From Eledone cirrhosa (Eukaryota): a stretch of DNA of 64,000 nucleotides. Below are positions 4,496 to 50,799 of this stretch, in pieces. The notes under the pieces were generated by a model. The model was not told the origin of the DNA and ran no database searches. It saw only the letters and a program-made list of their open reading frames with translations. Where the stretch lies: contig OZ024760.1 in the NCBI GenBank assembly GCA_964016885.1, positions 2,914,001 to 2,978,000 on the forward strand, given 5' to 3'. The position numbers were made by a program, and so were the translations under genes. Positions within the stretch are counted from its first letter, which is position 1, and the number at the start of each line of letters is the position of its first letter.

Positions 4496-4523
4496 ATATT
4501 TTTGGTGGTGCAGCTGAAGTAAC

Positions 4524-6012
4524 ATGTCACTGGGCAACCGCATGTCACCTGTCAACTATTGTCCAGTCAGTCTTACTAGCTGTATGGCCAAATTGATGGA
4601 ATCCTGTGTCAGAGAAACACTTTGGAACTTCTGGAGCTCTCACAGCCTCATCCGGCCCTCACAGTTTGGATTTATCCCTAACTCCAGCTGCTGTGATCAG
4701 CTTATCGAGTTCCTTGAAGACATCACCCGGATCACTGACAGCAGCTCATGGGTGGATGTTGTTTACCTTGACTTTGCTAAGGCTTTTAATTCTGTGCCAC
4801 ACAAAAGACTTATGGCAAAACTCTCTGCAATGGGTGTGAGGGATGATCTTTTCGACTGGTTGAAATCCTTCATTCTCAGCCAAAAAGAAGTAGTCACGGT
4901 TCTAGGACAGCATTCTTCACCATATGAGATGTCATCTGGTGTACCACAGGGATCTGTTCTTGGTCCCCTTTTGTTTGTGGCATATATTAATGACATAGAT
5001 GCCAACTTACGGAATGCCACGGTACTGAAATATGCAGATGACATCAAGCTGTACCTTGAAATCAAAAGGACTGATCCTGAAATCTACAACTCTTTCCTAC
5101 AATCAGACCTGGACACAATGCAGCAATGGATCACCGACTGGCAACTGAAGCTGGCTGTGGACAAGTGTACCACCATGCATTTTGGGAGGAAAAATCCAGC
5201 GTCCACATACTCCCTTCACGACACTGATATCAAGAAGTCCTCTTGTGAACGTGACCTGGGCATTACTGTCAGCAGCGATTTGCGTTGGACAAAGCATGTC
5301 TCTTAGATTGTCAAGAAGGCCGAGGGTGTCTTGGCATCACTCAACAAGACCTTTGTTAGCCGCTCTCCAGCCATCTATTTAAAACTGTATACAGCTATGG
5401 TACGACCACACTTGGAATTCGCATCATCAGTCTGGAACCCCTATCTTGCTCAGAACATTGACCTCCTGGAAACTGTTCAGAGACGTGCAACCAAGCACAT
5501 ACCCTCCATCAGACACCTACCATACTCTGAATGCCTTGCTTCCCTGGGCATGGATTCATTGAAACTCTGACGTCTGGCAATGGACTTGGTAAATACCCAC
5601 AAAGTTATTAACCATCTCGCCAATTGCAACCCTGAGCACCTTTTTGATCTCCATGTGTCTAACACACGTGGACATGCCTACAAAGTCAGAAAACACCACA
5701 GCTCCCATGACTTTCATAAACATTTTTTCACGCTCAGAGTTGCTGAAGCATGGAACTAACTGCCTGCGTCAGTTGTTAGCTGTCGAGACACTGCATCCTT
5801 TAAGACACTCATGCTTCCCGAAATACGCCAAAACTACACCTGATGTACCCCTCCCATACACATGCACACATGTGTGTATCATGACTCATGCACTGTTCAT
5901 TTTACTGATGTTTGTACATTACCCTATGTACTATACATACACTTTTTGATGAGTTGTAGTGCACCTGAGCACTGTACACAATATTTCATTATTATTATTA
6001 TTATATTATTAT
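4524..6012 (+). mobile_element. 5'-truncated CR1-group LINE (RT plus 3' UTR), inactivated by stop codons
   Basis: RT motifs YCPVSLTS, QFGF, VYLDFAKAF, GVPQGSVLGPLLF, YADD; continues to YTAMVRPHLEFASSVWNP and VQRRATK; premature stops at ~5304 and ~5568; 3' stem-loop gtagtgcacctgagcactgtac followed by an (ATT)n tail. Confidence 0.92.
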
Positions 6013-7450: not shown

Positions 7451-8288
7451 TTGCAGCATTCTGTGTTCAAATCCTGCTGATGTTAGCTTTGCCTTTCATA
7501 CTTAAAGTGTCAATAAAATAAAGTACCAGTAAACTCACTGGGGTTTAAGATGGTGTTTTGAACATAACTTAACAAAGGTTTTTACATAAAATTATGATGG
7601 AAGGTTTTTAGATAAGTATAGGATAAAAAGGATAAAGATCCCATAACTCCTTGTGGGGGTCATAGAGGCACCGTCATACGGCATGTCTAGGGCACTTTTA
7701 AACCTGGTGGAGCCCAACCCTCTCCATGTCTGAACACAGCCAATTTGTTTCTATAGAGGAAGAATCAACCCCAGTACTGGACTGGTACTTTATTTATCAA
7801 CCTTGAAAGGATGAAAGGCAAAGTTGACTATGGTGGGATTTGAACTCAGAGCGTGCAATGAGGTGGGACGAATACCGTAAAGCATTCTATCCGATGTCTT
7901 AATGACTCTGCAAAATCGCCGCATATAGATAAATATAAATATTTTAAAATAAACAGTTTTGTTATCATAGAACCAGGAATGGTTTCAAGCAGTTCGTGTC
8001 AAAAGGGTTTACAAATATTGGCATTTACAGTATGTGATCACTTATAAACTTTTTAGAAACTTTAATACCAACTGAGACTAGCTTAGCTATACGTGTATTT
8101 GAATAATGCAAAGTTGCCTGTTTAATATTCAAAAGGAAACCAGGCGTTTCCTATATTTCAAAGTACCATCCATCATGGCAGCTTGTATATCTATGTGTAT
8201 GTATAATGTATTTGTATATGTACACATGTATCTGTGTGTATGTAGCTATACCCTTGAAAATGTGTTTGTGTGTATGTATGTATGTATA

Positions 8289-34589: not shown

Positions 34590-37500
34590 ATATATACATA
34601 CATAGTGGCATACATACACAGTGGCATACATAGTGGCATACATTCATACATAGGGGCATACATACATAGTGGCATACATACATAGTGGCATACATACATA
34701 CATAGTGGCATACATACATACATAGTGACATACATACATACATAGTGGCATACATACATAGTGACATACATACATACATAGTGGCATACATACATACATA
34801 GTGGCATACATACATAGTGGCATACATACATACATAGTGGCATACATACATACATAGTGGCATACATACATACATAGTGGCATACATACATAGTGACATA
34901 CATACATAGTGACATACATACATACATAGTGGCATACATACATAGTGACATACATACATACATAGTCACATACATACATACATAGTGACATACATACATA
35001 CACAGTGGCATACATACATAGTGGCATACATACATACATAGTGGCATACATACATAGTGGCATACATACATACATAGTGGCATACATACATAGTGACATA
35101 CATACATACATAGTGGCATACATACATAGTGGCATACATACATAGTGGCATACATAGTGGCATACATACATACATAGTGGCATACATACATAGTGGCATA
35201 CATACATACATAGTGGCATACATACATACATAGTGGCATACATACATACATAGTGGCATACATACATAGTGACATACATACATACATAGTGGCATACATA
35301 CATACACAGTGGCATACATACATACATAGTGGCATACATACATACATAGTGACATACATACATACATAGTGGCATACATACATACATAGTGGCATACATA
35401 CATACATAGTGACATACATACATACATAGTGGCATACATACATACATAGTGGCATACATACATAGTGGCATACATACATAGTGGCATACATACATACATA
35501 GTGGCATACATACATACATAGTGGCATACATACATAGTGGCATACATACATAGTGGCATACATACATACATAGTGGCATACATACATACATAGTGACATA
35601 CATACATAGTGGCATACATACATACATAGTGGCATACATACATAGTGGCATACATACATACATAGTGGCATACATACATACATAGTGGCATACATACATA
35701 GTGGCATACATACATACATAGTGGCATACATACATAGTGGCATACATACATAGTGGCATACATACATACATAGTGGCATACATACATACATAGTGGCATA
35801 CATACATAGTGGCATACATACATAGTGGCATACATACATACATAGTGGCATACATACATACATACATAGTGGCATACATACATAGTGGCATACATACATA
35901 CATAGTGGCATACATACATAGTGGCATACATACATAGTGGCATACATACATACATAGTGGCATACATACATAGTGGCATACATACATAGTGGCATACATA
36001 CATAGTGACATACATACATACATAGTGGCATACATACATAGTGGCATACATACATAGTGGCATACATACATACATAGTGGTATACATACATAGTGACATA
36101 CATACATAGTGGCATACATACATACATAGTGGCATACATACATACATAGTGGCATACATACATAGTGACATACATACATACATAGTGGCATACATACATA
36201 CATAGTGACATACATACATACATAGTGGCATACATACATAGTGGCATACATACATAGTGACATACATACATAGTGGCATACATACATAGTGACATACATA
36301 CATACATAGTGGCATACATACATAGTGACATACATACATAGTGGCATACATACATACATAGTGGCATACATACATAGTGACATACATACATAGTGACATA
36401 CATACATAGTGGCATACATACATACATAGTGGCATACATACATAGTGACATACATACATAGTGGCATACATACATACATAGTGGCATACATACATAGTGA
36501 CATACATACACAGTGACATACATACATAGTGACATACATACATACATAGTGGCATACATACATAGTGACATACATACATAGTGACATACATACATAGTGG
36601 CATACATACATAGTGACATACATACATAGTGACATACATACATAGTGGCATACATACATAGTGACATACATACATAGTGGCATACATACATACATAGTGG
36701 CATACATACATAGTGACATACATACATAGTGACATACATACATAGTGGCATACATACATACATAGTGGCATACATACATACACAGTGGCATACATACATA
36801 CATAGTGGCATACATACATAGTGACATACATACACAGTGACATACATACATAGTGACATACATACATACATAGTGGCATACATACATAGTGACATACATA
36901 CATAGTGGCATACATACATAGTGACATACATACATAGTGACATACATACATAGTGACATACATACATAGTGACATACATACATAGTGACATACATACATA
37001 GTGACATACATACATAGTGACATACATACATAGTGGCATACATACATACATAGTGACATACATACATACATAGTGACATACATACATGGTGGCATACATA
37101 CATACATAGTGACATACATACATACATAGTGGCATACATACATACACAGTGACATACATACATGGTGGCATACATACATACATAGTGACATACATACATA
37201 CACAGTGGCATACATACATACATAGTGACATACATACATACATAGTGGCATACATACATAGTGACATACATACATAGTGGCATACATACATAGTGACATA
37301 CATACATAGTGGCATACATACATAGTGACATACATACATAGTGGCATACATACATAGTGGCATACATACATACACAGTGACATACATACATAGTGGCATA
37401 CATACATAGTGGCATACATACATACACAGTGACATACATATATGGTGGCATACATACATAGTGACATACATACATAGTGGCATACATACATACACAGTGA

Positions 37501-40500
37501 CATACATACATAGTGACATACATACATACATAGTGGCATACATACATAGTGGCATATATACATACATAGTGACATATATACATACATAGTCGCATACATA
37601 CATAGTGGGATACATACATACATAGTGGTATACATACACAGTGACATACATACATAGTGGCATACATACATACATAGTGGCATACATACACTGTGACATA
37701 CATACATACATACATGGTGGCTGCCAACTCGTTTTCGAGTACGGCCACTACTTTATATCCATGTAGGAGGACCCCTACCAATGCGCTGAACGTGTGTGAC
37801 TTTTTAGTCCAGCCAGCGACTTGAAAGCTCTGGTACTAACACTACACTTGTGACCATTATTGACACATAGTGCTGGGCCCATGGTACCATGTGACGACAA
37901 GTGCAGAGAGATCTCCAGATATAAAGCAATGCCTGTGCCGTGAAGCTTTTATAGTGAGCAAAGGCACTGCACAAAGCCAGTCCCACTCTCTTAACCAAGA
38001 TGATATTTACCAAAAAGAAGAACATACATACATAGTGGCATACATACATAGTGACATACATACATAGTGACATACATACATACAATGACATACATACATA
38101 CATAGTGGCATACATACATACATAGTGGCATACATACATACATAGTGACATACATACATACATAGTGACATACATACATAGTGACATACATACATACAAT
38201 GACATACATACATACATAGTGGCATACATACATACATAGTGGCATACATACATACATAGTGACATACATACATACATAGTGACATACATACATAGTGACA
38301 TACATACATACAATGACATACATACATACATAGTGGCATACATACATACATAGTGGCATACATACATACATAGTGGCATACATACATACATAGTGACATA
38401 CATACATACATAGTGACATACATACATAGTGACATACATACATACAATGACATACATACATACATAGTGGCATACATACATACATAGTGGCATACATACA
38501 TACATAGTGACATACATACATACAATGACATACATACATACATAGTGGCATACATACATACATAGTGGCATACATACATACATAGTGACATACATACATA
38601 CATAGTGACATACATACATAGTGACATACATACATACAATGACATACATACATACATAGTGGCATACATACATACATAGTGGCATACATACATACATAGT
38701 GACATACATACATACATAGTGACATACATACATAGTGACATACATACATACAATGACATACATACATACATAGTGGCATACATACATACATAGTGACATA
38801 CATACATACACAGTGACATACATACATAGTGACATACATACATAGTGGCATACATACATACATACATAATGGCATACATACACAGTGGCATACATACATA
38901 CATAGTGGCATACATACACAGTGACATACATACATAGTGGCATACATACATACATAGTGACATACATACATACATAGTGACATACATACATACATAGTGG
39001 TATACATACATAGTGACATACATACATACATAGTGGCATACATACATACATAGTGGCATACATACATAGTGGCATACATACATACATAGTGGCATACATA
39101 CATAGTGACATACATACATACATAGTGGCATACATACATACATAGTGGCATACATACATACATAGTGACATACATACATACATAGTGGTATACATACATA
39201 GTGACATACATACATACATAGTGGCATACATACATACATAGTGGCATACATACATACATAGTGACATACATACATACATAGTGGTATACATACATAGTGA
39301 CATACATACATACATAGTGGCATACATACATACATAGTGGCATACATACATAGTGGCATACATACATACATAGTGGCATACATACATAGTGACATACATA
39401 CATACATAGTGGCATACATACATACATAGTGGCATACATACATACATAGCGACATACATACATAGTGGTATACATACATAGTGACATACATACATAGTGG
39501 CATACATACATAGTGACATACATACATACATAGTGACATACATACATACATAGTGACATACATACATACATAGTGGTATACATACATAGTGACATACATA
39601 CATACATAGTGGCATACATACATACATAGTGGCATACATACATACATAGCGACATACATACATAGTGGTATACATACATAGTGACATACATACATAGTGG
39701 CATACATACATAGTGACATACATACATACATAGTGGCATACATACATAGTGACATACATACATACATAGTGGCATACATACATAGTGACATACATACATA
39801 CATAGTCACATACATACATACATAGTGACATACATACATACACAGTGGCATACATAGTGACATACATACATACATAGTGGCATACATACATAGTGACATA
39901 CATACATACATAGTCACATACATACATACATAGTGACATACATACATACACAGTGGCATACATAGTGACATACATACATACATAGTGGCATACATACATA
40001 GTGACATACATACATACATAGTCACATACATACATACATAGTGACATACATACATACACAGTGGCATACATAGTGACATACATACATACATAGTGGCATA
40101 CATACATAGTGACATACATACATAGTGACATACATACATAGTGGCATACATACATAGTGGCATACATACATACATAATGACATACATACATGGTGGCATA
40201 CATAGTGACATACATAGTGACATACATACATAGTGACATACATACATAGTGACATACATACATACATACATAGTGGCATACATACATAGTGACATACATA
40301 CATAGTGACATACATACATAGTGGCATACATACATAGTGACATACATACATAGTGGCATACATACATAGTGACATACATACATAGTGGCATACATACATA
40401 CATAATGACATACATACATAGTGGCATACATACATACATAATGACATACATACATAATGACATACATACATAGTGGCATACATACATACATAATGACATA

Positions 40501-40700
40501 CATACATAGTGGCATACATACATACATAGTGACATACATACAGTGTCATACATACATAGTGGCATACATACATAATGACATACATACATAATGACATACA
40601 TACATAATGACATACATACATAGTGGCATACATACATACATAATGACATACATACATACATAATGACATACATACATAGTGGCATACATACATACAATGG
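34590..40700. repeat. ~6 kb satellite of (CATA)2-5 plus GTGG/GTGA units (mostly 16 and 20 bp), interrupted at 37721-38022 and resuming at 45390-45590
   Basis: Direct reading; source of the 600-1100 aa M/Y/V/C pseudo-ORFs. Confidence 0.97.
37721..38022 (+). mobile_element. 302-bp non-coding insertion in the CATA satellite; putative non-autonomous site-specific retroelement
   Basis: Unique sequence between ...catggtgg| and |catacatacatagtgg, the same register as the R4-type element; A/G-rich 3' end. Confidence 0.55.
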
Positions 40701-40860
40701 CGACCGTTGTGGCCAGTGTCCGATAATCGGACGTGTGTAATTACGGCTTACATGAAGGCAACATACCATATAGTGGAAAAAGTTGAGCTACTTTACGCGG
40801 TAAGATTACATACAATAATTCTACATAAGTGTTTGAACTGTGTGTTGTAAAACACCTATT

Positions 40861-41402
40861 TATATGAACGATACATACACTTATGATATATGAACGATAC
40901 ATACACTTATGATATATGAACGATCCATACACTTATGATATATGAACGATACATACACTTATGATATATGAACGATCCATACACTTATGATATATGAACG
41001 ATACATACACTTATGATATATGAACGATACATACACTTATGATATATGAATGATACATACACTTATGATATATGAACGATACATACACTTATGATATATG
41101 AACGAGACATACACTTATGATATATGAACGAGACATACACTTATGATATATGAACGATCCATACACTTATGATATATGAACGATACATACACTTATGATA
41201 TATGAACGAGACATACACTTATGATATATGAACGATACATACACTTATGATATATGAACGAGACATACACTTATGATATATGAACGATACATACACTTAT
41301 GATATATGAACGATACATACACTTATGATATATGAACGATACATACACTTATGATATATGAACGATACATACACTTATGATATATGAACGATACATACAC
41401 TT
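40861..41402. repeat. 26-bp tandem repeat (~21 copies) in the 5' region of the R4-type element
   Basis: tatgaacgatacatacacttatgata. Confidence 0.93.
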
Positions 41403-41859
41403 TAACATATAAATGCAATGTTGTTATATTACATTTATAAAGAAATATACAAGTAACGTGTTCGATTCAGAAACAAAAACATAAGTGTTTGAACTGTGAA
41501 TATGTTGTGAATAAGTTGTAGAACACCTATTTATATGAATGATACATAAACTTTAACATATAAATACAGCGTTGTTATATTATATTACATTCATAAAGAA
41601 ATATACTAAGTAACGGTTCTTTTTGTTCTCGATTCAAACGATTCAAGAACAACGTTTAAAACACAGTTGTAGAATTAAATCTAACTGAAAAGAAATATTA
41701 CCCAAGCTGTGAATAACTTTAAATTTGATTCTGACAGAACTTTGTCGAAACTTTTAAAGAAGATCATCGACTATTTTGAAAAATAAATACGAAATATTAG
41801 TGAATAGACGAACTCATCATGGCAAAAAGTACAAGTCTCCTTTGACCAAATCGCAACTA

Positions 41860-44800
41860 CAACCGTTGTACACAGTGGAGCTACAAGCTTAACAAAGTAT
41901 TATATGAAGCATACAAACAATCTGAACCCCAAAAGTTCGGTTTTATGCAAAGGCTAAAAACTTTATGGAACTCCAAACACCCAGAATTAGACTTTTCTCC
42001 AAAGCATTTAAATGAACAGGCAAAACGTATCATTAGATGTAAATTGATACATCTAACGGAATTGAGTGATACTACAAATACAGCCCTTGTAGACAACCAC
42101 CCCACCTCCACTGACAGACAAAGAGAATGGCCAGCTAAATCTAACAGATTTTGCTGAAATCCATCCCACTTCCACTGAAGAACAGCGAGAAAGGTCAGCT
42201 AACTCTAGTAGTAATTGTCACCACATCAACAACGGGGCTGAAATTCAGGACTCTACTGAACAAACAGAGCACCAAAAACTTGTGGACACCCTACAAGTGA
42301 TATGGAACGATATGTTTCAAGAGATACACAGCCTTAATGTGAGTGACAGACCATACAACACTAGAGTCAGTAAAGAACCCACTAAATTGGAATTGGAAGC
42401 GGTGAACGAAATAGTTGGCAATTATCTGAAGGCTATACGATCTAAAGGTGTAGAAACGACATTTGAAACATTTAATGTTTTGTTATATGTTTCAGCTGTC
42501 ACATTGCTATCATATAACACACTTCTAAAACTATGCAATCAAGATACAAACAGAAAGCCTGAACCAGCGTGGATGCGAAATTTAAAAACCAAAATTTTGT
42601 CCCTGAGACGAAGTATCTCACACATCGCAGTCGTTATGAAATGCAACATAGAGAGCAACTTCACACGACACCAGGAAGACCTAAAGAAAAAGTTAGAGAG
42701 ACGATTTGGAGATACAAAATTTAAAACTTTGAACTCCAAATTACACGAGTTGAAACAACAACTCACAGCTACAACAGAAAGACTAAAATATAAGTCAACA
42801 GCACATAAACGACAAGTGCTAAATAGATTGTTTGCCAGAGATCCTAAATCAGTTTATCGCAGCTTCGGTGGCAAAAGCTCAATCCCTGTAAACGACACCC
42901 CTTCAAAAGAACAGGTTGAGAGCTACCGGAGATCTGTATGGGAAACGGATGACGGATTCAACAGACAAACTAATTGGCTAAAAGAACTGGAACAGGACTA
43001 CTGCCAACATGTCCAGACAAAACAATATGACATAGATGGGTCAATACTGGAAACAGCTCTACAGAAAATGTCGAATAGGAAATCGCCAGGCCCCAGACCT
43101 CATTACAGGATACTGGTTGAAGAATTTCACTTTCTATCGGCAAGATCTCATACGGCTGTTTACAGAAACCATTAAAGGCACACAAGAACTGCCCAGATGG
43201 TTATCAACTGCCACTACTCTCCTCATTCCCCAAAATAGCCAAACTACCCTTGCTAAAAATTACCGACCAATAGCCTGCCAAAACATCATGTATAAATTAT
43301 ATACTGGGTGCCTTAACCTGTTCTTACAGGATCACTGTGCTACCAACAACATCATAACACCTGAGCAAGCTGGTGGAAAGAGGGAGGTGTGGGGTTGCAT
43401 AGATCACCTACTAACTAACAAAATGATTCAGGAAAAAACAACAAAGAATCGCAGAAACATAACTGTCGTGTGGCTGGACTATCAAAAAGCATTTGATAGT
43501 GTACCTCATGGGTGGATTATTAAGGCTTTACAGTTAGCTAAAGTCCCACAACCATTGGTAGCTGCTGTTGAACGCCTGACCAAGAACTGGTACACCAATT
43601 TGATCCTTAGAGGTGAGAAGGAGCAGGTTAAGACTGATAAGATACATTACCAGAAGGGCATCTTTCAGGGTGATAGCTTGTCAGTGCTACTCTTCGTTCT
43701 CTCACTGAATCCACTATCTTACCTACTCAGGAAACAGGGTGGACAAAGAAATGGGCCCAGAAGTATCTCCCATCTTTTCTTTGTTGATGACCTGAAGTTG
43801 TATGGGCCAAATATCAATGACATCAAGAAACAATTGGACCTCATTACACAATTTTCAACCGACATCAAAATGAAATTTGGTGAGTCCAAGTGTGCATATT
43901 TGGCAGTAAAACGTGGAAGAGCTGTGCCCTCCTCTAGAAATCTAGAAATGAACGACCCGACAATACAACCTCTGCAGTCAGGTGGCAACTACAGATATCT
44001 TGGACAGGATGAGAATGTCAGATATGATGGACCCATAAATAAGGAGAGAACCAGAACTGAATACCTCAGAAGAGTAAAGAAAATATGGTCATCAGAACTG
44101 TCAGCATACAACAAATACATTGCCCACAATACTTATGCTGTGCCAATTCTAACGCCAACATTTGGCCTTCTGAACTGGTCATTGCAAGAACTAAGTGAGA
44201 TGGATGTTAGAACTCGAAAACTTCTCAGTGTTACTGGCAACTTTAACATCAATGGTGATGTGGATAGGCTATACTTCTCACGCAAGGAAGGTGGCCGGGG
44301 TCTAAAATCAATATTAACAACATATGAGATCCGGATAGTAACACTGAAGCAACACCTTCAACAGAGGAAAAAGGTTGGCAACCATCTTGCCCAGGTTTAT
44401 GAGCATGAAAAAAAAATATCATTAGAATAGCGACTGATCTGGAGGAGAGATATGGAATAAAGCCTGATATAAATCTCTCTCCCAGAGAAATCGGAAGATC
44501 CTATTCAATGTTCAAACAAGATAAAAAAATTGACCAATTTACAGAAAAAGTTGTGCATGGATACTTGAGGCGTAAAACACAGACCATAGAGGGGATAAAC
44601 CACTCAAAAAGCCTGGCATGGTTCCGACAAGTTTATGACATCACACCTTGAGGGATATCTCTATGCAAACAGGAACAAGAACTCCCTACCAAATATCTGC
44701 TGCACAAAAGAGGAGGGCCAGCAGCTGACAATAAATGTAGGCTATGTAAAACAAAGATCGAGGATGCAAGCCACATTGTTGCCAGCTGCGAAAGAATGTC

Positions 44801-45308
44801 ATCTCGCTACTACCTCCCCATGAGACGTGATGGGATAGCTAGAACCATCTGGAACGCACTTCGGAAAACAAAATTAACAACAAACGAGGAAGAATATATT
44901 GAGACAGATGGCACTAAGGAATACTGGTGGAACCTGAAAATAAAAACTGCCACCAAATTAAAGCACAACCGGCCTGATATTGTTGTTTGGGACCACACAT
45001 TGAAAACGTGTTCTGTTGTGGAGATCAGCTGCCCACTTGATGTAAACGTTGTCAGAAAAATACAGGAGAAGGAGGACATCTACGAACCATTGATGAGGAG
45101 TTTACATATCCAGTATCCAAGATACACCTTTAGCTTCATACCCATCATTATTGGAGCTACGGGTTATATACCAACCCGCTTGGACCAAAGTATGACTGAA
45201 CTTGGATTTGCGGACAAAAAGCGCAGCTCCCTAATTCATAGTCTACAAATGGCTGCGATAGCTGGCACCTTCAAAATTTGCAAAACATTCTTGCGATTCA
45301 AGGGATGA
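41860..45308 (+). pseudogene. Disrupted single ORF of the R4-type element (Myb-like, RT, zinc knuckle, RLE)
   Basis: Pieces 41945-42157, 42282-43175, 43036-44430 and 44796-45308, separated by frameshifts. Confidence 0.85.
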
Positions 45309-45889
45309 CAATTTCTTTTCTTTTACAACTTTGCCACCAGGAAGGTGGCGGTCAAAAAATATATACTCGAAATTAAGAGAAAGAGATAACATACATAGTG
45401 ACATTCATACATACGTAGTGGCATACATACATGCATACACATATAGTGCCATACACATATAGTGCCATACATACATAATGACATACATACATAGTGGCAT
45501 ACATACATACGTAGTGGCATACATACATGCATACACATATAGTGCCATACACATATAGTGCCATACATATATAGTGGCATACATACATTTACACATACAT
45601 ACAAGTACAAACATTCGTTCATACTACATACATACTTATATATAAATGTCATATATTTAAAAACCACACACACACACATATATATACACACATCCACACA
45701 TACATACACACACACATACATACACATACACATATCAACACATCAGCATATATACACCCCCCCCCCATACACATACACACCCACACAAACATACACATAC
45801 ACACATCCAAACAGAAAGATCAAGACAAAACAAAACAGACGACATATTTTAAAAGTCCTTCTATGTCTTATTGAAAGACTTCTATTGTT

Positions 45890-50117: not shown

Positions 50118-50500
50118 GGCGGTGGATTGGCAGTATCGGTAGAGGTTCGGACGCCATGCTTTGACGCATAGAGTTACGGCCCTTGCCATTCTGAGTTCAA
50201 ATCCCGCCGAGGTTAACTTTGCCTTTCATCCTTACGGGGTCGATAAAATAAAGTACCAGTAATGTACTGGGTAATTTTCTGGCCTTGTGCCAATAGTAGA
50301 AACAATTATTTTTCGTGGATTGGCAGTATCAGTAGAGGGTCTGACGCCATGCTTTACAGCAAAGAGTTACGGCCCTTTATGGTCTGAGTTCAAATCCCGC
50401 CGAGGTTAACTTTGCCTTTCATCCTTACGGGGTCGATAAAATAAAGTACCAGTAATGTACTGGGTAATTGCTGGCCTTGTGCCTAAAGTAGAAACAATTA
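50118..50500 (+). mobile_element. Two tandem SINE B copies
   Basis: Same family; both flanked by attatttttc-like sequence. Confidence 0.85.
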
Positions 50501-50799
50501 TTTTTGAAGTCCCACACTTGGTCAGCAAATTGGCTGGTATGAATTTTGTCAGGATGACAGAAGGTTGTTTCATGGTTCATCTACCGGCTTATGAATTGAC
50601 TCTCAGACATTCTGACATAAGTCCAGACTTCAGTTTGGTGGTTCTGGTTGGTGGAGATTACATCTGGTGCAGGAAAATAGCCTATTTTCACTGACTGGAT
50701 ATTTCTACCAAACATGTACTACAGTACACACACACATATATATATATATATATACATACATGTGTGTGTGTGTGTAATGTATATATATATATATTCATT

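Follow-up and report, generated by a model that had tools for sequence, protein, structure and literature searches.

In the window analysed here, i.e. the whole stretch of 64,000 nucleotides, a satellite of CATA repeats is interrupted twice, and we consider it fairly probable that the interruptions are two independent retro-insertions of opposite polarity: a broken R4/Dong element and a truncated copy of a high-copy repeat. What stands from our analysis is a likely tetranucleotide-targeting branch of the R4/Dong elements, together with a second, likely unrelated retroelement that enters the same repeat from the other direction; the presence of Dong-R4 in octopus is itself already known.

The compound satellite (about 34590-45600, no strand) consists of CATA runs with spacers, mainly GTGG (156) or GTGA (108), and totals 6.0 kb (6,012 of the 64,000 window bases, in blocks of 3126, 2675 and 211 bp). 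A left (CATA)n-GTGG/GTGA block (34590..37715), a middle block (38025..40696) and a degenerate right block (45390..45600), all without strand, are separated by inserts at 37716-38024 and 40697-45389, which confirms an earlier note on this DNA that had described a satellite broken by two sequences and had quoted the junction letters. No second copy of either insert was found within the 64-kb window. Elsewhere in the window we observed a 5'-truncated LINE fragment (4518-5990; RVT_1, E 5.8e-35) ending in (ATT)n, which from its motif we take to be CR1/L2-like and unrelated to both inserts, as well as a 193-bp dimer (50122-50505) and a shorter related piece (7455-7545), both presumably resembling a common octopus SINE.

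The R4/Dong-type element and its likely target repeat

By the features of its sequence, i.e. reverse transcriptase, CCHC knuckle, PD..E nuclease and the lack of an N-terminal zinc finger, the long insert (40697..45389, plus strand) is an R4/Dong-type non-LTR retrotransposon, full-length but decayed. Its 5' UTR (40697..41818) contains a tandem array (26 bp x 20.8; 40861-41402) and a block (40823-40882) similar to 41479-41553, and both the array and the duplicated block likely reflect internal expansion. A single ORF (41819-45308), covered whole by tblastn with full-length intact relatives, comprises a conserved N-terminal domain without zinc finger (41819..42115; 46% to residues 1-98 of P0002), the reverse transcriptase frame (43036..44427; Pfam RVT_1, E 1.2e-24; FFVDD motif), a CCHC zinc knuckle of the form C-x2-C-x8-H-x4-C (44736..44789) and a restriction-like endonuclease (RLE) region with an RPD...E motif reaching to the stop codon (44970..45308); it is followed by a 3' UTR of 81 nt (45309..45389) with a stem-loop (z -3.3), all on the plus strand. 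The ORF aligns as four frame pieces to the intact 1149-aa P0002 and is broken by a stop at 41843-41845 and by frame changes near 42115-42190, 43090-43170 and 44415-44430. A profile of 28 relatives matches the solved R2 proteins from the reverse transcriptase through the C-terminal nuclease (E 7e-53), and the best named protein match is from Argonauta hians (66%), which makes an octopod host likely. We detected no N-terminal zinc-finger family in the window's N-terminal pieces or in three intact relatives, no Myb/SANT match by sequence at the N-terminus in Pfam or PDB, and neither a match nor ribozyme evidence for the 5' end in Rfam; the R4/Dong anatomy given in PMC7998251 (in part) includes a Myb-like N-terminal domain. 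The 5' junction reads CATACA|ATGG (ambiguous up to 40702) and the 3' junction GATAA|CATA, so that a target duplication of either 2 or 6 bp fits.

The relatives of the element were drawn from the 120 listed among 702 homologues, the top 45 of which are separated from the rest by a drop in score from 439 to 362 bits, and from metagenomes, where 17 of 64 parts were scanned and 80 of 357 relatives were taken. Two more loci came from other scans, among them a Dong-family scan of genome contigs that yielded one distant locus. The reverse transcriptase tree of 83 rows holds the loci with a C-terminus and at least 280 RT residues, the proteins (P0001-P0045 minus P0019 and P0043, plus eight more distant ones) and the window. 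In this tree the window element falls into a 48-row branch (support 100/99), adjoining Argonauta, and the nearest relatives outside this branch are TAA-flanked elements and insect proteins, the tree being built without named Dong/R4/Rex6 references. Of 81 loci, 38 include the C-terminus; downstream of it the first simple repeat is TAA in 20 of these loci, CTTA in 2 and a different one in 5, while 11 show no repeat. Both CTTA loci lie inside the window's branch, and all TAA loci placed in the tree lie outside. Among the five branch-like loci (L001, L002, L003, L004 and L008), L001 is flanked by (CTTA)n on both sides (L001:1-100 and 4822-4869) and L004 ends in (CTTA)n (L004:4651-4694), while L002 and L003 stop 264 and 404 nt past the ORF with no repeat reached and L008 is internal. 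The 3' junction lies directly before C in all three informative elements (window, L001, L004), and the 5' junction of the window element and of L001 comes after CW. The window element does not sit in (TAA)n, its own flanks being CATA and those of its branch relatives CTTA. As a separate observation, the 3' UTR measures about 1,060 nt in L001 and L004, both metagenome contigs, versus 81 nt in the window element.

These three elements, each seen in one copy, suggest that the branch has likely shifted its target from TAA to C(A/T)TA tetranucleotide repeats. A preference of the window element for the CATA repeat is likely because its branch relatives L001 and L004 sit in an analogous CTTA repeat with the same 3' register. 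The target does not seem to include the GTGG spacer, since the flanks of the relatives are plain (CTTA)n and the loose ends most often seen in the short family described below are pure CATA or TA runs. Of the earlier proposal of a family specific for (CATA)n or a TGG site, a likely CATA preference is supported by the CTTA relatives, and GTGG is probably no part of the target. The reverse transcriptase, CCHC knuckle, nuclease motif and R2 profile match likewise bear out the earlier identification of a 4.7 kb RLE-type LINE, and the anatomy supports its assignment to the R4/Dong type. Among the mainly open papers searched, none was found to describe R4/Dong elements with CATA or CTTA as target; an entry of this kind may exist in Repbase or Dfam.

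Judging from one copy per family, the Dong nuclease would nick the (TAWG)n strand at G^T, reverse transcription would be primed at that nick, and the other strand would be cut after CW. Such staggered cuts would give a duplication of 2+4n bases, and the branch as a whole may represent a tetranucleotide-targeting offshoot of the TAA-targeting Dong elements. It counts against this reading that the target is derived from three elements with one copy each, that the in-branch loci L002, L003 and L008 come without flanks and that the window's own Dong family was seen as one copy.

Further observations concern more distant relatives in the same tree. Among the relatives of the TAA type, L019, L023, L029 and L033 group together in a sub-branch of four rows with support; they end in (TTA)n, in (TA)n, in poly(A) or without a repeat, which suggests that targeting is relaxed in this group. 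The sequence downstream of a divergent relative (L065:4265-4491) looks, by its motif, like the end of an 18S rRNA gene, and this locus may represent an rDNA-associated family.

The short insert: a truncated piece of a high-copy family

The short insert (37716..38024, likely minus strand) appears to be the 3'-terminal 309 nt of a longer retroelement, i.e. a 5'-truncated copy with an RTE-like end. It was found in twenty sequencing runs, and we aligned the contigs of runs X1, X6, X12 and X16 on 37692-38052, contig depth not being taken as copy number. Run X1 contains 8,485 matching contigs; X6, X12 and X16 contain a single contig each, and these three share six differences from the window. The left end does not vary and includes GGTGG, which the single contigs of X6, X12 and X16 also carry, and no alternative letters are listed at 37716-37720, placing the boundary at 37715|37716. 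On this side the loose ends with the most support consist of CATA repeats (138 contigs), TA repeats (85) or other AT-rich sequence (31). On the right, the family extends past 38024 with the same non-satellite sequence in all four runs (28 contigs in X1; a loose end of 255 nt in X16), and with these 255 nt of X16 the family reaches a length of about 560 nt or more. Ten of the 12 listed joints lead from differing body positions (37887-38019) into a CATA run; the joint table holds 37 further joints and 92 loose ends besides those listed, and it can show no joints into non-CATA flanks and gives no share of CATA-flanked copies. All 11 junctions, i.e. the ten joints and the window copy, show microhomology of 1-3 nt (47% have 1 or more under the null), which reaches at least 2 nt in 8 of the 11 (null 19%); in the window copy it is ACA at the truncation point. 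Nine of the 11 fall into one register (p 1.3e-4). The short insert is not a whole element but a truncated part of a family present in very many copies.

Searching for an exact 23-nt pattern of the insert gave 0 matches in genome and viral contigs, and Rfam gave repeat-driven or chance matches only. No tRNA or Rfam match that could mark a SINE head (tRNA, 5S or 7SL) was found in the part present, the 5' part being likely absent from the window copy. None of the listed runs with the insert is an RNA run, which has no bearing on expression. Side observations concern the distribution across the twenty runs, which carry 16 organism labels: in X4-X20, with 15 further labels, 44-59% of the short-insert words are present, some of these assemblies being only 4-20 Mb, and this may come from transfer, from relatives or from trace DNA. 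The one contig in each of X6, X12 and X16, under other organism labels, has a depth of 7-14 and may reflect trace DNA or relatives.

5'-truncated retrocopies typically combine a fixed end that carries a repeat tail with a second end that varies and is joined by annealing. Because the fixed end lies on the left and the variable end on the right, the short insert most likely faces the minus strand; joining of 5' ends by annealing is described in PMC4245944 (in part). Read on that strand, the insert presents a C2H2 zinc-finger remnant (37781..37846), a stop (37777-37775), a likely 3' UTR of 59 nt ending in a stem-loop (37716..37774) and then (ATGT)n; the final CATA units of the left satellite block are likely this tail plus target. 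The C2H2 motif arises in 11 of 20,000 shuffles, and the majority letter of the other copies at 37837 supplies its second cysteine. The same frame has two stops upstream, where no majority change is listed. Six library matches all scored on the C2H2 stretch, five of them being multi-finger proteins, and the Atlas gave a C2H2 finger at 0.97, but with a recognition of 2158, below the 2300 mark. Protein searches with two frames found generic C2H2 matches only and no parent LINE. Folding gave z -1.2 for the last 75 nt on the minus strand and z -3.1 for the first 105 nt on the plus strand.

Among known elements, RTE-2_OV of octopus ends in a C2H2 motif with a microsatellite behind it (PMC9115989, in part), an arrangement that the succession of C2H2, stop, short UTR and repeat in the short insert matches; RTE tails have been proposed to guide site choice by pairing (PMC6007223, in part), truncated RTEs are often mistaken for SINEs (PMC2887409, in part) and RTE-BovB is greatly expanded in cephalopods (PMC10294476, in part). 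A non-autonomous RTE derivative fits the short insert best, and we regard this assignment as somewhat better than an even guess. On this view the insert would be what is left, at the 3' end, of an RTE-type element on the minus strand, which is likely a non-autonomous derivative; the (AUGU)n tail of its RNA could pair with nicked (ACAT)n to start reverse transcription; copying would stop early and the end would be rejoined by microhomology. The lack of a parent LINE in our searches, the two upstream stops, the better fold of the plus strand and a 9-mer shared with the Dong element count against this reading.

Relation of the two inserts

Seven alignments of the Dong element with the short insert gave no significant homology in six cases and one marginal match, a 9-mer shared by the Dong 3' UTR and the minus-strand end of the insert (22 of 500 shuffles; one of 7 tests). 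This agrees with the earlier description of the inserts as unrelated-looking, and the suggestion that the shorter one is multi-copy and microsatellite-associated is borne out by 8,485 contigs in X1 and by the CATA and TA loose ends. Other parts of that description have to be given up: the two inserts had been placed in the same orientation and in the same left register (tgg|c), but the short one most likely faces the minus strand, and GGTGG belongs to it, with the boundary at 37715|37716; the A/G-rich stretch taken for its 3' end is not an end, as the family continues past 38024 in all four runs; and its classification as non-coding is at odds with the minus-strand C2H2 motif (37846-37781). 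The model built on these features, a complete non-autonomous passenger of 302 bp in the same orientation as the Dong element and equipped with its 3' recognition end, would account for the multi-copy, CATA-flanked nature of the family and for the plus-strand hairpins at its left end (z -3.1). It is now very improbable and largely refuted by the aligned contigs, which show a piece of a longer family: the family does not stop at the right end of the insert, and this end varies between copies, whereas target-primed copying fixes the 3' end and not the 5' end; in addition, the last 100 nt of the insert on the plus strand resemble the Dong UTR no better than chance would allow (375 of 500 shuffles do at least as well), so that the right ends share nothing beyond expectation. 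Opposite polarity and the lack of a shared end make any passenger relation unlikely. Still, the bond implied by the truncation junctions of the insert (TATG^TATG, 9 of 11) is the one at which the Dong nuclease would make its first nick, and this coincidence leaves a small probability that the CATA-targeting Dong protein mobilised the short family by priming from the opposite-strand nick, hence the reversed polarity. The fixed end of the insert is compatible with CA^TA, the putative second cut, and the 9-mer lies near both 3' ends (22 of 500). There is, however, no other homology between the two, the order of C2H2 remnant, stop and repeat tail is RTE-like rather than R4-like, the register bias may stem from annealing alone, and RTE-BovB, given its great expansion in cephalopods (PMC10294476, in part), would be a simpler driver.

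The remaining alternatives concern the inserts singly. That the Dong family has no sequence specificity and landed in the 6-kb array by chance, or survived there passively, seems unlikely to us: one copy was seen, the array makes up 6,012 of the 64,000 window bases and Dong-R4 covers 92.7 Mb in O. vulgaris (PMC13282606, in part), but the two branch members for which flanks are available lie in (CTTA)n in the same register, and most R4-clade families are target-specific (PMC4640811, PMC7998251, both in part). The strong plus-strand hairpin at the fixed end and the lack of a retroelement parent in our searches would also suit a DNA or rolling-circle (Helitron-like) element that has a hairpin at its single fixed end, or else part of a LINE that targets CATA but belongs to another clade; we give this an outside chance, as the variable ends joined by microhomology and the minus-strand order of finger, stop, UTR and repeat fit retrocopies. 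The decamer at the fixed junction of the short insert (37712-37721) matches a minority satellite unit at 37084, 37160, 37440 and 40188 (counted with C or T allowed at the second position), which raises a side hypothesis, compatible with our preferred explanation of two independent retro-insertions: the GTGG satellite may have grown from the terminus of the short element by re-priming, or pairing between terminus and spacer may have guided insertion. This appears doubtful, given that the insert has satellite sequence to its left and right alike, that most units have A where the terminus has G and that the commonest tails of other copies are pure CATA. The most far-reaching combination, in which an undescribed Dong branch retargeted from TAA to C(A/T)TA is accompanied by a massively amplified octopod short retroelement that uses the same staggered cut from the opposite strand, primes on Dong's second-strand nick and seeds the GTGG satellite from its own terminus, strikes us as quite improbable.

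Significance and comparison with known systems

RLE retrotransposons are under development as site-specific gene-insertion tools, and a natural series of TAA, CTTA and CATA targets in one clade would allow the target-choosing residues to be mapped by comparison. Dong-R4 makes up about 93 Mb of the O. vulgaris genome, and a CATA target would help to explain where these elements land. With the short family comes a second way into the CATA repeat, one that is likely guided by an RNA tail. Target switching between microsatellites is already a known theme; our finding extends this pattern and overturns none.

The short insert resembles the RTE-clade LINEs and their derivatives (RTE-2_OV, Ceph-SINEs, lepidopteran RTEs), as far as these are described in the sources consulted, in its terminal C2H2, short 3' UTR, microsatellite tail and truncation; it differs in that no RT, APE or head was seen in it and no parent was found. 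The sites of lepidopteran RTEs are described, in the parts available, as not sequence-specific, whereas many copies of the short insert abut CATA on both sides. The SIDEs of R2 (PMC3414825, in part) are the kind of pair that the earlier note had proposed, namely passengers of an RLE element, but they derive from their parent by internal deletion, whereas the short insert holds no significant Dong sequence. Further literature for comparison is found in PMC5786205 and PMC4758252 (both in part).

For the long insert, octopus Dong-R4 families belong to the same clade and likely to the same host group (PMC13282606, PMC9115989, both in part): 51 families covering 92.7 Mb are reported for O. vulgaris, with 5 recently active families and 1,129 insertions (PMC13282606, in part), and one Dong-R4 consensus for O. 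bimaculoides (PMC13282606, PMC9115989, both in part). The window copy may belong to one of these described families, the comparison being by description only. The available portions of PMC9115989 and PMC13282606 give no target sequence for octopus Dong-R4, and a motif search in part of the PMC9115989 supplements found nothing. Among the molluscs surveyed, Dong-R4 occurs almost only in cephalopods (PMC10294476, in part). The Dong elements of other animals (B. mori Dong, DongAg, DongBg and the ostracod Dong) share with the window element the single ORF, the RT and the C-terminal CCHC and nuclease (PMC7998251, PMC3812793, both in part), as well as the lack of an N-terminal zinc finger and the insertion into microsatellites. 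They differ in their target: Dong inserts into (TAA)n in most insects, molluscs and cnidarians according to these two sources, whereas the window element lies in (CATA)n and its branch relatives in (CTTA)n, split off at 100/99. Other RLE families target other microsatellites (PMC4640811, in part), and the same repeat class is targeted by Waldo, an R1-clade element specific for ACAY microsatellites (PMC3812793, in part). Waldo differs from the window element in its APE nuclease and its insect hosts, and a CATA-targeting RLE element would thus be convergent with it.
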